DNA of 64,000 nt. Origin: an uncultured cyanobacterium. GTDB taxonomy: Bacteria > Cyanobacteriota > Cyanobacteriia > Cyanobacteriales > Microcystaceae. A program made the position numbers and the translations under genes. The notes below the pieces were generated by a model. The model searched no databases. It was not told the DNA's origin and was given only the letters and a program-made list of their open reading frames with translations. The stretch lies in assembly GCA_963807635.1 (NCBI GenBank), contig CAWEDJ010000105.1, forward strand, positions 29,965 through 93,964. Reading direction: 5' to 3'. Positions 22,051-49,728 of this stretch are shown here, piece after piece (position 1 is the stretch's first letter; each line of letters opens with the position of its first letter).

Positions 22051-22144
22051 GACTCGGACTCATGCGATCGCAACGCCCAAATCTTGTCAGGACCGGAAGG
22101 TAGCAGCAATACGGGATGCTTACGGTAGGCGTGATCTCCGGGTC
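22051..22144 (+). ncRNA. ffs: Signal recognition particle 4.5S RNA
   Basis: Conserved TCAGGACCGGAAGGTAGCAGC loop; closing stem GACTCGGA/TCCGGGTC; TATACT -10 element just upstream. Confidence 0.93.
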
Positions 22145-22291
22145 TTTTGTTTGAATTTGGCTCAAAAAGTTCAATAATCTCAAAAAAATCTATACTTTTC
22201 CAAAATCCTCTCAATTCGGTTTAGGAAGAGAAGACCGACTAATGGTATTCTAAAAAGTGTTAACTTATGATGACAGAGAGGCAGCGAAGCC

Positions 22292-43785: not shown

Positions 43786-46095
43786 ATGCAACCGACGTTA
43801 GCCGCGACCCTTTCCCCTCAAACCGTCCCAACATCGCCCCTTTCTAGCTCAGGATTAGCAACCACCAATGCCCACCATCGAATTCAAGTGATTCGTCGCG
43901 ATGGCACTTCAACGGCATTAAACATTAGTAAAATTCGGGCAGTAGTCGATTGGGCCTGTGCCAAACTGAATGCAAACTCGATCGCCCTAGAGGCAGGTTT
44001 AACGACTCGTTTGCGGGATGGCATTAGTACCAGGGAAATTCAGGATAATTTGGTCAATTGCGCCCTAGAAATGTGTAGTCCCGAAGAACCCGATTGGCGT
44101 TATGTGGCGGGAAGACTCCATATCTGGGGTTTGTGGAAAGATATTTTGGTCAGTCGCGGCTATCAGTACGGGCAGTATGCAACAACGGTGAAGGAAAAAG
44201 TTGCATCGGGTCAATACGATGAACGGATGTCGCTCTATTCTGTCCAGCAATTAGAAGAAGCGGGAAATTGGATTAATTCAGACTGGGATACGGACTATGA
44301 CTACGCGGGAGTCGTTTTATTGACCAGTCGCTATCTATTGCCGAACGAGTTACCCCAGGAAGCGTTATTAACCTGTGCGTTACTCTTAGCATTGCCTGAA
44401 AGTCCTGAAAATCGCTTGGCTTGGGCAAAACGGTTTTATGAAGCGATCGCGTCCCGTAAGGTTTCTTTGGCTACACCGATTTTGGCAAATTTGCGGGTTC
44501 CCAAGGGTTCTCTCACCAGTTGTTTCATCGTTGCGCTTGACGACAATTTAGAAAGTATTTTCCGAGAAATCACCAATGCAGCCAGAATTTCTAAAAATGG
44601 GGGTGGTGTCGGGGCTAATGTCAGTCGCATTCGGGCCACAGGTAGCGTGGTTATGGGCAAACCCAATGCGTCAGGCGGTGTCATTCCCTGGATAAAATTG
44701 CTCAACGATACGGCGATCGCGGTGAATCAAGGAGGTCGTCGAGCGGGGGCTGTGACAGTTGGTTTAGATATTTGGCATTTGGATGTGCCTGAATTTCTGG
44801 AAATGCAGACCGAAAATGGGGATCAAAGACGGAAAGCCTACGACATTTTTCCCCAATTAATTCTGCCCGATGAATTCATGCGACGGGTCATCAATAAAGC
44901 TGAATGGACATTAGTTGATCCCTACGAAGTTCGGACGAATTTAGGGATTGAACTTGCCGAATTATGGGGGGAAGATTTTGAAAAAGCCTACGCATTAATT
45001 GAATCTAAATTGGGTCAAGAAATCACGCTTTATAAACAAGTGAATGCCCGTGAATTGTTTAAGGAAATGATGCGATCGCAGGTAGAAACGGGAATGCCCT
45101 ATCTCGCCTTTAAAGATACGATTAATCGCGCTAATCCTAATAAACACGCGGGTTATATTCCTGGCGTAAACCTTTGTACAGAGTCATTTTCCAATGTCAC
45201 GCCAGGCCAAGATGCCCACTGCTGTAATCTCGTTTCCCTCAATCTTGCTAATATTGAAACGGCTGAATTAGAAGATTGTTGTCAAATTTCTGTACGAATT
45301 TTAGATAATACGATTGAGTTAACCAGTCCTCCCTTTGAAGATGCGGCTAATCATAATAATAAATATCGGACGATCGGCGTGGGTGCGATGGGTCTAGCGG
45401 ATTGGCTCGCTAAAAATCGTTTTTCCTACGATCATCTCACTCAAATCAGTCATTTATTTGAAGATATTGGTTATTACTGTACCCAGGCTTCAATGGAATT
45501 AGCCAAGGAACGCGCTCCTTATAATGCTTTTGCGGGGAGTGATTGGAGTAAGGGGCTTTTGATCGGCTCAAAACCTGTTGAATGGTTCCAAGAAAATGCT
45601 GCTCAACCCGAACGCTGGCTTAAGCTTTCCGATGATATTCAGACCTACGGCATTCGCAACTCCCACATCACCGCGATCGCGCCTAATACGTCTTCCTCGT
45701 TGGTGCAGGGTTGTACTGCTAGTGTTTTACCCGTTTATAGTCGTTTCTTTTACGATAAATGGGCGAAAGGAACGGTTCCGATCGCGCCGCCGTTTATCAA
45801 TAATTGCTTCTGGTTCTATCCCGAAAATAAAAATCTCGATCAAAACAAAGTCGTGAAAGCGGTGGCAACGATTCAGCAATGGATTGATACAGGTATTTCG
45901 ATGGAGTTATTGTTTAATCTCAATCATGGGGTTTATTTTCCTGATCAACCCGATAAAGGTTTAACGGCTAAAGATATTTTTGATACCTTGGTTTTGTCTT
46001 GGAAAGAGGGATGTAAGGCGGTTTATTATGTCCGCACTGTCCAGAAGGATAATTTTAAGGAATCGGAAGCGGGTTGTTCGGCTTGTGCGAATTAG
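43786..46095 (+). CDS. nrdA: Class I ribonucleotide reductase alpha subunit with ATP cone
   Basis: VIRRDG ATP cone, TSCF, GGGVG, NLCTE, APNTSS, KAVYY, C-terminal CSAC. Confidence 0.95.
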   Translation: MQPTLAATLSPQTVPTSPLSSSGLATTNAHHRIQVIRRDGTSTALNISKIRAVVDWACAKLNANSIALEAGLTTRLRDGISTREIQDNLVNCALEMCSPEEPDWRYVAGRLHIWGLWKDILVSRGYQYGQYATTVKEKVASGQYDERMSLYSVQQLEEAGNWINSDWDTDYDYAGVVLLTSRYLLPNELPQEALLTCALLLALPESPENRLAWAKRFYEAIASRKVSLATPILANLRVPKGSLTSCFIVALDDNLESIFREITNAARISKNGGGVGANVSRIRATGSVVMGKPNASGGVIPWIKLLNDTAIAVNQGGRRAGAVTVGLDIWHLDVPEFLEMQTENGDQRRKAYDIFPQLILPDEFMRRVINKAEWTLVDPYEVRTNLGIELAELWGEDFEKAYALIESKLGQEITLYKQVNARELFKEMMRSQVETGMPYLAFKDTINRANPNKHAGYIPGVNLCTESFSNVTPGQDAHCCNLVSLNLANIETAELEDCCQISVRILDNTIELTSPPFEDAANHNNKYRTIGVGAMGLADWLAKNRFSYDHLTQISHLFEDIGYYCTQASMELAKERAPYNAFAGSDWSKGLLIGSKPVEWFQENAAQPERWLKLSDDIQTYGIRNSHITAIAPNTSSSLVQGCTASVLPVYSRFFYDKWAKGTVPIAPPFINNCFWFYPENKNLDQNKVVKAVATIQQWIDTGISMELLFNLNHGVYFPDQPDKGLTAKDIFDTLVLSWKEGCKAVYYVRTVQKDNFKESEAGCSACAN

Positions 46096-46236: not shown

Positions 46237-48309
46237 ATGAACAGTGATTTAGATAGTTGTATTTATATTCATGGCTTGGGTATTTCTTCTTATCGAAGCT
46301 TTCCTAAAGATATTCAACAGATATATCCTTTCAAAAAAATTAACCTTTTTATCGGTCGTAATAACTCAGGGAAGTCAAATATACTAAGTTTTTTATACAA
46401 ACATTACCTTTCAATATTTCGCGGGGAAGAGATAAAATTTGAGAATGTTGATTATTATAATTTTACACCTTTTCAGAAAAATGAGATAAAAACAGAATTT
46501 TATTTTTATGCTAAAAAAGATTGGAAAGAACAATTAATTAATGAACATAAATCTATTCCAAAAAAGAATAACAATAGCTTCAGATATATACTTGAAAATG
46601 AACCTAAAAATGAAATTTTACAGAAAGTTCTAGAATCGAATCAGTTATCTGAAAATGAAGATTCTTATTTTGAGCTAACCAATCGTCAATATTCGATAGG
46701 TAGTCATTTCGAGTTTAAAAATTTAGAAATTAATGATTTTGAGAAAATAATTTCTTCAGATAAGCAATTTACAACAGAATACTTAGAAGGGCTTCATTCT
46801 GATCTAAAGAAAAACAAATTAGAGGGATGGAAAAGTTTAACTAAAAACACTAAAAAAATTGAACTTCAATCGACTACAACTAATAACGATCCTTCTCATT
46901 TTAATAGCCAAGTTGACCAATATATAGAAAATAAGAAAATAGAAAATGATAATAAGATATCGTACTTAAAAGAAATTTTGGGTTATATTTGTGATTTTAT
47001 GTTAGATTATTCAGGCTATTTTGAAAGTTATTTCAAAGAAGATTTTGGAATAAGTCTTATTCCCGCAATTCGAGAAGTTGGTAATCAAGATACAATTTTT
47101 GATGAGAATGAATTTAACGGTCAAGGCTTAATTGATGGATTAGCACAACTACAGCATCCTGACCATTTTGAGCAAGAGAAAAAAGAGAAGTTTAAGAAAA
47201 TCAATCAATTCTTAAGAACTGTTACAGATAATGAATCAGCTAAAATAGAAATTCCTCATGATAAATCAAAAATATTAGTAGAAATGGATGGAAAAATTCT
47301 ACCACTACAATCTTTAGGGACAGGAATTCATGAAGTAATTATTCTGGCGGCGGCGGCAACAATTAAAGAAAATCAAGTGATTTGCATGGAAGAACCAGAA
47401 TTACATTTGCATCCACTTTTACAAAAAAAGCTAATTAGCTATCTTCAAGAAAAAACTAATAATCAATATTTTATTACAACTCATTCTGCTCATTTTTTAG
47501 ATACTCCTGACGTATCAATATTTCATGTTAATTATGAAAATGGTTGCTCCGTCGTCAACAAAGTCGAAACAGATAATCACAAAACTACAGTTTTATCTGA
47601 CTTAGGATACAAGCCCTCAGATTTATTACAAACCAATTGCGTGATTTGGGTAGAAGGGCCATCAGATCGTATTTATCTAAACTATTGGATTCAGTGTTTT
47701 GCACCAGAACTAAAAGAAAAAATTCATTACACAATTATGTTCTATGGCGGGGGTTTATTAAGTCATTTATCGGTATCTGATTCAGAAGATGAAAATGATT
47801 CTGGTTTAGAAGATTTAGAAGATGTAAACGATTTTATTTCCTTATTGAAAATTAGTCGTAACACAGTAGTTATGTGCGATAGCGATAAAAGTAATAAAAA
47901 TGACTCTTTAAAGCCAGCTATTGAAAGAATTAAATCAGAATTTGAAAATACTGAGTTTGAAGGTTTTCACTGGATTACGGATGGTCGAGAAGTTGAAAAT
48001 TATTTAAACCCTGATATTGTTGAAGAAATTATCAAGAAAAATCATCGTAATGTTGAAAAAATAAGTAGCAAAACTATATACAGTTACTTTTGGAAATATA
48101 AAAGTAGCAAAATCAAAAAGAATCCAACTGCTGACAAAGTAAGACTTGCTAGAAAACTCGTAGAATCTTATTCTCCAGCATCCGAAGAAAATTTTGAAAA
48201 GATAACTAATTCGGCTCTTGAGAACTCATTGAAAAAATGGATTGAAGGATTAATTAATTTTATCAAAAAGTCTAATGGGATACAATTAATTCATTGGGAT
48301 AGCTTGTAA
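46237..48309 (+). CDS. OLD-family ATP-dependent nuclease (ABC-type ATPase plus TOPRIM)
   Basis: GRNNSGKS Walker A, SLGTG signature, MEEPELHLHP Walker B/D-loop, ITTHS; TOPRIM WVEGPSD, CDSD, EVENY; AT-rich. Confidence 0.85.
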   Translation: MNSDLDSCIYIHGLGISSYRSFPKDIQQIYPFKKINLFIGRNNSGKSNILSFLYKHYLSIFRGEEIKFENVDYYNFTPFQKNEIKTEFYFYAKKDWKEQLINEHKSIPKKNNNSFRYILENEPKNEILQKVLESNQLSENEDSYFELTNRQYSIGSHFEFKNLEINDFEKIISSDKQFTTEYLEGLHSDLKKNKLEGWKSLTKNTKKIELQSTTTNNDPSHFNSQVDQYIENKKIENDNKISYLKEILGYICDFMLDYSGYFESYFKEDFGISLIPAIREVGNQDTIFDENEFNGQGLIDGLAQLQHPDHFEQEKKEKFKKINQFLRTVTDNESAKIEIPHDKSKILVEMDGKILPLQSLGTGIHEVIILAAAATIKENQVICMEEPELHLHPLLQKKLISYLQEKTNNQYFITTHSAHFLDTPDVSIFHVNYENGCSVVNKVETDNHKTTVLSDLGYKPSDLLQTNCVIWVEGPSDRIYLNYWIQCFAPELKEKIHYTIMFYGGGLLSHLSVSDSEDENDSGLEDLEDVNDFISLLKISRNTVVMCDSDKSNKNDSLKPAIERIKSEFENTEFEGFHWITDGREVENYLNPDIVEEIIKKNHRNVEKISSKTIYSYFWKYKSSKIKKNPTADKVRLARKLVESYSPASEENFEKITNSALENSLKKWIEGLINFIKKSNGIQLIHWDSL

Positions 48310-48379
48310 TTGTCTAAAATTTAATGTTAAATTAGAGAGGCAATAATTATCTATTCTCTTGTTATTTTATAACATTGAT

Positions 48380-49728
48380 ATGCTACTGACTGAACCTAAA
48401 ATATCTCAAAAAATGCCCGTTACCCCGATATTTAATCCAACGGGTGATGACTCAACAGAAAACCGTTCTATTTGGTTTGGTAATACCACCAACTTGATGC
48501 AACTCAATGATGTCCGTTATACCTGGGCAGTCGGTTTGTATCAACAAATGCGTGAAAATTTCTGGATTAAATAGGCAGTCCAGTTTAAATCCCTTGAAAA
48601 CGGTGAAAACCTGTCGTTTATTATCACAGACAATACCGTGCCAAGCTTGCCCAAAAGCGAGAAGGTGTAGAGACTATCAAAAAGCAGAATAATTCTGACT
48701 GAGTAGAGTAGGCAGTAAGCGATTGACTGTCGAAGCGGGGGACTCCTTTAAAACTTAAAAGGATGATGATATAGTCCGATCTATTTGGTGACAAGTAGCA
48801 GCTTGAATAAAGCGGGTTAGGTATAGCGAACCTAATTGAACATCAATGACCTCAACGATTAGATATTACCCAAGACGTTACCGATTATTGGAATTTAACC
48901 GATGATGAACGCTATGCTTTTGATGGAATTTTATCCTATTTAACTTTTTTAGATTCCGTTCAAACCTGTAACATTCCTCACATCAAAAATAGTATTACTG
49001 CTCCTGAAATTAGTCTCTGTATGGCAGAACAAATTTCCCAGGAAGGAATGCACAACCAAAGCTATCAATATATGATAGAAACCATTATTCCGCCAGAAAG
49101 AAGAACGGCGGTTTATGAATTTTGGCGTACCGATAGAGTATTAAAAGAACGCTGTGAATTTATCGCTGGACTCTATCAACAATATGTAGATAATCCAACT
49201 CAGGAAAATTATTTTATTGCTCTTATGGCAGATTTTCTTTTGGAAGGACTTTATTTTTATAATGGTTTTATCTATTTTTATAATCTAGGATCACGGATGT
49301 TGATGCCAGGGTCAGCCGATATTTTTAAAATGATTAATCGGGATGAATTAAGTCATGTTCGGTTGTATCAAAAATTGATTCCTGAAGCAATGAAAGTCTT
49401 TCCCCATTCGCGAGAGCAAATCTATGAAATGTTTGATACTGCCGTTGAATATGAATGTCGTTGGACAAATCATATCGTCGGGAATAATATTCTAGGAATT
49501 ACGGAACAGAGTACGGAACAATACACCAAATATTTAGCCAATATGCGTCTGCGTTCTATTGGTTTAGATCCTCTTTATCGGGAGTCTAAATTTGATAAGA
49601 GTCCCTATACCCATTTAGAACGTTTTTCTGATACTAAAAAAGAAGGCCATATTAAGGCGAATTTCTTTGAGGCAACGGTAACGAGTTATGTGATGTCTTC
49701 GGGAATTTCGGGATGGGATGAAATTTAA
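48380..49728 (+). CDS. nrdB: Class I ribonucleotide reductase beta subunit; exons 48380-48567 and 48849-49728
   Basis: Joined exons give ...MRENFWIPQRLDITQD...LTFLDSVQ...EGMHNQSY...EGLYFY...RDELSH...NFFE. Confidence 0.93.
48568..48848 (+). ncRNA. ORF-less group I intron (281 nt, IA2-like) in nrdB
   Basis: 5' exon CUGGAU pairs with intron GUCCAG (P1, U.G at the splice site); P3 UCCCUUG/CGGGGGA; P4 ACGGU/ACCGU; P7 GACUA (48672)/UAGUC (48772); terminal G48848; excision restores the frame. Confidence 0.92.

Follow-up and report, generated by a model that had tools for sequence, protein, structure and literature searches.

An IA2-type group I intron in the nrdB gene of an uncultured cyanobacterium, and its relatives at the same insertion site

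On the forward strand of the window, by which we mean the whole 64,000-nt stretch of DNA analysed here from an uncultured cyanobacterium of the Microcystaceae, lie the ribonucleotide reductase genes nrdA and nrdB, the second of which is split within its Ile63 codon (AT/A) by a 281-nt insert:

43786 to 46095, + strand: nrdA, uninterrupted gene of the class I large subunit (769 aa; TIGR02506, 593.6 bits), the partner gene
48380 to 48567, + strand: nrdB exon 1, 62 codons plus the AT of Ile63, matching positions 4-56 of PRK09614 (NCBIfam)
48568 to 48848, + strand: group I intron, 281 nt, IA2-type, without P2 and without an endonuclease ORF
48849 to 49728, + strand: nrdB exon 2, the A of Ile63 plus 292 codons and the stop

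Joining of exons 48380-48567 and 48849-49728 gave a single 355-aa open frame reading FWIPQRLDIT, which matched the NrdB family PF00268 with 204 bits and PRK09614 with 291 + 47 bits over the two exons, and in which the ligand motifs were located. Exon 1 holds Trp62 of the FW motif and exon 2 holds D98, E128, H131, Y135, E195, E229 and H232, the metal-ligand and radical roles of which we presume from E. coli NrdB. The gene was assumed to start at the ATG at 48380 (alternatives, TTG at 48359 and ATG at 48413); as one of the promoter matches, all of consensus level only, ends at 48402 inside the assumed exon 1, this start codon is tentative. Because Trp62 lies in exon 1 and gene calling places the earliest start within exon 2 at Met121, beyond Asp98, neither piece alone is expected to work. 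Pieces of 71 aa and 235 aa are recorded as separate proteins in the databases, a fragmentation by gene callers akin to the pseudogene call that an earlier note on this DNA had expected of automated annotation. Searching the genome, the assembly of which is 93.7% complete, found one nrdA and one nrdB and no nrdD, nrdJ or second reductase, one of which could be unassembled at that completeness; with this single nrdB, the same note's proposal that the NrdB made here depends on splicing is borne out. Codon differences in the exons were mostly synonymous (synonymous to non-synonymous, 54:5 against genome G004 and 68:14 against genome G001), and the exons are evidently under purifying selection by this comparison. 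Between nrdA and nrdB lies an unrelated gene for a 690-aa AAA_15/OLD-like ATPase (46237-48309, + strand; 29% GC) with weak PADLOC matches to GajA/AriA; since the gap holds different cargo in G001 and G004, it is a variable slot, possibly for defence genes. An ordinary bacterial small SRP RNA was also found at 22051-22147.

The borders of the insert, TGGAT/TAAAT...CAATG/ACCT, place it at 48568-48848 on the + strand. With permissive filters, the Rfam covariance model RF00028 matched 48544-48798 with 59.6 bits (E 1.9e-14) against a gathering cut-off of 50 bits, and the covariance-model check proposed in the earlier note thus came out positive; a default-filter Rfam scan of the whole window missed the intron. 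By plain folding, the folding energy of the intron is not unusual (z -0.60), and the evidence for it is therefore the covariance model together with the covariation described below. When intron-less relatives were compared, the BLAST match was interrupted at the identical place and the tblastn matches were unbroken. Many other splice borders leave the frame open, and 48568-48848 alone gives FWIPQ with a U before the intron and a G at its end. An assembly artefact was excluded by a copy in G001 identical at 278/281 positions and by 27 further distinct copies at the same site. The sense strand of the intron holds no ORF of 60 aa or more, a tblastn search with the HNH protein of relatives described below detected no free-standing helper endonuclease in the window's genome, and the Rfam scans and the ORF search near the gene detected no riboswitch family, linked aptamer or insertion sequence. 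The insert is therefore a group I intron of IA2 anatomy, a new example at a site very likely published before, and it is real and very likely functional; the class assignment in the earlier note was correct, as judged by the RF00028 score, the U.G pair, the terminal G and the covarying core.

The RNA elements, mapped by hand, are as follows:

48562 to 48583, + strand: P1, exon bases 48562-67 with the internal guide 48578-83
48572 to 48574, + strand: in-frame stop in the P1 loop, where the unspliced frame terminates after FWIK
48573 to 48575, + strand: 5' strand of P10, pairing with exon 2 at 48850-52 (68/78 cells paired)
48590 to 48742, + strand: core, from P3 to P7.2
48590-96/48736-42, + strand: P3, core
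48600-04/48635-39, + strand: P4, core
48611-14/48626-29, + strand: P5, 4 pairs; its loop holds the HNH gene in relatives
48619 to 48702, + strand: relic of an endonuclease tail (YYHRQYRAKL...SD, then stop; LHHRQYRAKL in relatives), without a start and not a gene
48640-42/48664-66, + strand: P6, core
48646-50/48657-61, + strand: P6a, core
within 48670 to 48777, + strand: P7 guanosine site, 48670 and 48672-76 with 48772-77, A48671 bulged
48677 to 48707, + strand: P7.1 region, present, of varying length and register
48708 to 48710, + strand: GUA link, invariant in 26/26 homologues
48711-16/48726-31, + strand: P7.2, 156/156 cells paired
48744-49/48758-63, + strand: P8, 90% paired
48779 to 48848, + strand: 3' domain, P9.0 through the terminal G
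48779-80/48846-47, + strand: P9.0, 3' domain
48781 to 48798, + strand: P9 with a GNRA loop
48801 to 48813, + strand: P9.1, 3' domain
48815 to 48837, + strand: P9.2, 3' domain
48848, + strand: terminal G; terminal ATG in 18/18 listed copies

Conservation of this structure was assayed on 26 homologues, which are kin and not independent, with a structure drawn from the window's own sequence; of 28 homologues, G192 and G116 were omitted for the long inserts that they have in P7.1 and P8, and P6a and P7.1, too variable to align, were excluded from the pair count. The predicted pairs were kept in 1670 of 1712 cells (97.5%), versus 90.9% in shuffled and 35-41% in slid controls, and 25 of the 66 pairs were altered on both sides, one of them an exon-intron pair. 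P3, P4, P6 and P7 were 100% paired, many of their pairs being invariant and hence of little weight by themselves. The wobble U48567.G48578 in P1, the mark of the 5' splice site, was U.G in all 26 homologues; P1 was paired in 156/156 cells, and its exon-guide pair changed from A-U (20 homologues) to G-C (6/26) on both sides, in step with an Ile to Val change in the protein. The other telling pair besides that of exon and guide lies next to the guanosine site: G48670-C48777 was G-C in 25 homologues and A-U in one, G094, and is also A-U in the RNA contigs X1, X2 and X4. P10 was the weakest helix (87% paired), and its base 48573 doubles as the first base of the RNA circle described below; thus both the P1 with U.G and the P10 claimed earlier were located. 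In P5, a pair frequent in relatives is a mismatch in the window copy. The stop before the guide was kept in 28/28 homologues (TAG in 20, TAA in 8). Subgroup IA2 has been characterized by P7.1 and P7.2 between P7 and P3', linked by GUA (in the section on the intron of PMC3428280), and by an extended P9.0/P9.1/P9.2 domain (likewise in PMC4227781); P7.1, P7.2, the GUA link and the three-part P9 domain were all mapped here, which on anatomy places the intron in IA2, as had been suggested, RF00028 being the general model and not a subgroup-specific one.

Splicing was followed in eight of 20 listed metatranscriptome runs, as assembled contigs of relatives, mostly 90-99% alike and without strand. The exact join 48567>48849 was observed in five of the eight runs (X1, X2, X3, X4 and X5), at the splice sites 48567/48568 and 48848/48849 and with the exon junction that the earlier note had predicted, and was absent from three (X6, X7 and X9). 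A back-joint 48848>48573, in which the terminal G is linked to base six of the intron and which so marks a 276-nt intron circle, was observed in four runs (X2, X3, X4 (study P1) and X7 (study P4)) and was absent from the other four, X6 and X9 having no intron cover; a shortened circle of this type forms after splicing (PMC4227781, in its part on intron circles). Neither joint was present in the genome's DNA. The RNA join reads ATA CCT CAA, as in the intron allele; ATA is missing from 38 of 40 intron-less alleles and present in two, among them L027 with ATA CCT CAA, so that the join alone could derive from an intron-less strain. In X1, the intron-less G004 allele ATT CCG CAG appeared as a separate joint, and an unspliced contig was found alongside the exact join. 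The introns of the relatives with the join or circle in RNA differ from the window's by 4-9 bases, and the X7 circle differs at 4 of its 276 bases. These results indicate that the nrdB gene likely works via removal of the intron, the RNA being that of close relatives and not of this strain. Circles in metatranscriptome assemblies thereby offer a cheap in-situ read-out of splicing.

The same site was surveyed in cyanobacteria and viruses, as the earlier note had proposed, and the intron proved to recur. Of 172 genomes with nrdB among 401 sampled from the order, at least 15 carried the codon-63 intron; in a 401-genome sample of the phylum, all 39 matches fell within the window's order. A pattern scan gave 26 genome loci, every one with an FW(I/V) exon ahead, in Snowella, Microcystis, Synechocystis, Geminocystis, Spirulina, Planktothrix, Lyngbya, Limnoraphis, Rhizonema and Scytonema, and ten metagenome loci and more members of one family are further carriers. 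The nearest named copy is that of a Snowella sp. (278/281 identical), the same-genus genome G004 lacks the intron, and the distribution is patchy. The loci L027 and L034 may be precise intron losses. Exon 2 begins (48849) with A in 24 of 28 intron alleles, as against A at the corresponding position in only 2 of 40 alleles without the intron, for which either co-conversion or selection for P10 may account. At one locus (L163, 151-491), only 5 bases separate the codon-63 intron from the end of a group II intron upstream of it, and this 5-nt exon forms most of P1.

Counted by eye, 28 distinct full introns at this site comprise nine with an HNH ORF in P5, eight with a decayed P5 insert of 94-192 nt, ten in which, as in the stripped copy of the window, the P5 domain measures 47 nt at most, and one (G192) with a LAGLIDADG_2 ORF in P7.1 and no P5 HNH gene. 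The locus of this last copy is L097 757-1647, an apparently similar case is L166, and L139 has a long insert in the P7 region without a long ORF. The HNH ORF, of 166-203 codons, lies in the P5 loop and continues through P5, P4 and P6; it matches the PHROGs HNH family phrog_2255 (E 3.7e-30), gave no HNH match in a Pfam search, and belongs to a protein cluster of 39 members, several named Microcystis. The running of an ORF into the ribozyme core has been called core creep, and the table of the paper concerned has no P5 case (PMC3073962). In the window, the tail relic overprints the ribozyme core, where RNA structure alone could preserve the frame. We read the window intron as a deletion derivative of an HNH-bearing intron. 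The description of it as lacking a homing endonuclease therefore stands for the window copy, which has no intact endonuclease ORF and on that measure is not a homing intron, and does not hold for its relatives, ten of the 28 homologues having such an ORF (HNH in 9, LAGLIDADG_2 in 1).

A single viral contig carried the codon-63 intron, an 8-kb contig (L057/L144) that ends in exon 1 and whose neighbour genes match virion structural families. The NrdB it encodes has about 70% identity to that of the window and at most 45% to those of GenBank phages. At 779 of 797 positions (98%) its intron is identical to the one in G416, which is part of a Microcystis chromosome with housekeeping-type genes on either side, versus 80% likeness over the first 200 nt of exon 2; the medians for comparison are 81% for intron cores and 75% for exons. 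In FastTree trees, which are short (205-264 columns) and unrooted, the window intron grouped with that of G094 (core 92% alike, support 0.97), whereas the exons of the two, 77% alike, fell into different groups. Among GenBank phages, 149 records matched parts of the core and none covered more than 80% of the intron; a looser core pattern gave 48 viral loci, one of them in nrdB. A review of 2014 saw, in its part on mobility, little evidence for interspecies movement of bacterial group I introns (PMC3984707); the viral contig and Microcystis pair, together with the intron-exon tree conflict, offers a direct test of such movement with cultured hosts.

Codon 63 is one of several insertion sites in nrdB. 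In other genomes, group I introns with their own HNH or GIY-YIG genes were found at codons 134, 203 and 227, and group II introns near codons 40, 61, 74, 91 and 136. In one nrdB (L195, 1429-3548), codons 63, 134, 203 and 227 each hold a group I intron without an ORF, and all four introns reach or exceed the Rfam cut-off. Exon 2 was in two or more pieces in about 37 of 172 genomes, by eye and with contig breaks possibly among them, and adding nine genomes with the codon-63 intron only gives a rough ceiling of 46/172 interrupted genes. Three-intron nrdB genes occur at L033 3353-8285, L155-L158, L198 and L199, some mixing introns of groups I and II; in L199, 13 codons lie between two group II introns, and there is a group I match as well. 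In two same-genus genomes (L004 2145-3270 and L007 1695-2820), a codon-134 intron has a NUMOD4/HNH_3 ORF and a 3' end 82-84% alike to that of the window intron over 88-92 nt, and ends of the codon-134 intron are also present in RNA run X2. In nrdA, a related group I intron is present at codon 316/317 in L102, L103, L105, L106, L107 and L116, and L105 has a second nrdA intron at 345. We lean slightly towards a joint reading in which the class I nrdB of freshwater Cyanobacteriales serves as a so far unrecognised market where introns are actively exchanged, with four group I and several group II sites, up to four self-splicing introns per essential 1-kb gene and perhaps a quarter of genomes interrupted, in which cyanophages with host-like nrdB ferry the introns from species to species, the 98%-identical phage/Microcystis pair being a recent case, and in which the P5 HNH protein is an undescribed homing endonuclease capable of driving the traffic. 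As such genes are recorded as fragments and the default Rfam scan misses the intron, reductase inventories of bloom-forming cyanobacteria are likely miscounted.

For the window itself, we consider it highly probable that an IA2 intron in the sole nrdB found removes itself to give full-length NrdB, and that it arrived by homing via phages, lost its endonuclease and stays as a near-neutral passenger; this selfish reading accords with everything observed. Following group I chemistry, ribosomes would halt at the conserved P1-loop stop, free guanosine in P7 would attack after U48567, P10 would position exon 2, and the exons would be ligated at the terminal G; the terminal G of the released intron would then attack behind base five of that intron, yielding the circle of 276 nt. 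The intron would have spread by homing with the P5-loop HNH endonuclease, probably via cyanophages with host-like nrdB, the window's lineage would then have lost the endonuclease by deletion, and the intron would persist, likely near neutrality, kept splicing-competent because the reductase is essential.

That excision needs host RNA chaperones, so that the intron is not strictly self-splicing, is improbable: P5, with 4 pairs, is short and there is no P2, host factors assist many group I introns in vivo (PMC3073962, in the sections on splicing), and the RNA contigs are compatible with assisted and unassisted splicing alike, but the core pairs are all intact and the P2-less IA2 intron of the cyanophage Pf-WMP3 self-splices in vitro (PMC3428280, in its account of splicing). 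We give considerably less credit to a host-domesticated switch, in which guanine-nucleotide level or ribosome stalling at the P1-loop stop would set the rate of splicing and so tune NrdB; the earlier note had raised the regulatory idea, and regulation by guanosine is unsupported. Such a switch would accord with the dependence of NrdB on splicing, the stop kept in 28/28 homologues, the unspliced contig and join both in X1, the description of the stop as 'indicative of translational regulation' in the passage of Fujisawa et al. on it (PMC2853384), and the precedents described for a c-di-GMP riboswitch-intron (PMC3984707) and temperature-dependent flagellin introns (PMC4853749). However, the distribution is patchy with intron-less kin in the same genus, different introns occupy four different sites, endonuclease gain, decay and loss match the homing cycle, Rfam scans brought up no riboswitch family near nrdB, and the stop is explained by keeping ribosomes off the ribozyme (PMC3984707, in the relevant section). 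A pseudogene with a dead intron, its function covered by another reductase missing from the 93.7%-complete assembly, is scarcely credible even with the P5 pair common in relatives mismatched here, as both exons lack a frame break and have a strong synonymous excess, the intron core and nrdA are intact, and the join and circle occur in relatives with introns 4-9 bases different.

In itself, the self-removing intron of the preferred reading is ordinary biochemistry; it matters in practical and evolutionary respects. For Arthrospira platensis NIES-39, a class I reductase with two group I introns was reported by Fujisawa et al. 2010 (PMC2853384), whose tables label the three gene pieces as beta chain and whose Table S8 enters '1?' for Microcystis NIES-843 and Crocosphaera. 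All six fragment ends of NIES39_L05970/80/90 fit the ORFs of locus L194 with one constant offset, where introns are placed at codons 63 and 227; the first lies at FW(V)/P and, in the parts that align, shares 76-86% identity with the window intron. From this fit, the codon-63 site has very likely been in print since 2010. Like the window's, the first NIES-39 intron has the same gene, the same cyanobacterial order and a stop just past the insertion; unlike it, it has 358 nt, a P5 remnant and a companion intron at codon 227. The text and tables on NIES-39 in that paper give no subgroup, endonuclease, splicing data or distribution. Such introns are treated as uncommon in the passages on them in PMC3984707, PMC12702839 and PMC4853749, and their rarity in bacterial chromosomes, as stated in the earlier note, was overstated, given at least 15/172 carrier genomes and a site that maps onto the published Arthrospira intron. 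In the literature outside most subscription journals, we found neither a survey of introns in cyanobacterial nrdB genes nor splicing data for them, nor any description of the P5 HNH protein. New in this work are evidence of splicing in situ, the endonuclease in P5, the pair of phage and host introns, and genes with as many as four group I introns.

For the Bacillus cereus group, introns in small-subunit genes of the chromosome are well documented; in the parts of Nord and Sjoberg 2008 (PMC2248736) and Tourasse and Kolsto 2008 (PMC2504315) on it, nrdF IVS6 with I-BthII resembles the relatives described here as an IA2 intron with P7.1/P7.2/P9.1/P9.2, an endonuclease present, decayed or lost by strain, splicing by RT-PCR and a proposed phage origin. 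It differs in its class Ib gene, its site near nt 579 and not codon 63, and its GIY-YIG endonuclease in P6a, as against HNH in P5 in the cyanobacterial introns. The Pf-WMP3 DNA polymerase intron with I-PfoP3I is alike, in its description in PMC3428280, as an IA2 intron without P2, with GUA-linked P7.1/P7.2 and an HNH ORF running into the core in a cyanobacterial setting, and unlike in its host gene, an ORF that begins in P6a and its phage location. A group I intron of Nostoc punctiforme, reported by Meng et al. 2007 according to papers that cite it, likewise lies in a chromosomal cyanobacterial reductase gene, but the enzyme is of class II and the intron carries an insertion sequence. The phage T4 nrdB intron with I-TevIII shares the gene family, the order P7-P7.1-P7.2-P3-P8-P7-P9-P9.1-P9.2 and the trait of a decayed HNH gene; unlike the window's, it lies at FYVSFAC/T (codon 221/222), has P2 and is phage-borne. 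An insertion site shared with T4, Yersinia phage fHe-Yen9-04 or B. cereus IVS6 was ruled out by position. In fHe-Yen9-04, nrdB (L160, 851-1900) appears in the annotation as two genes; an intron-like insert splits it, at a site that equals cyanobacterial codon 227.
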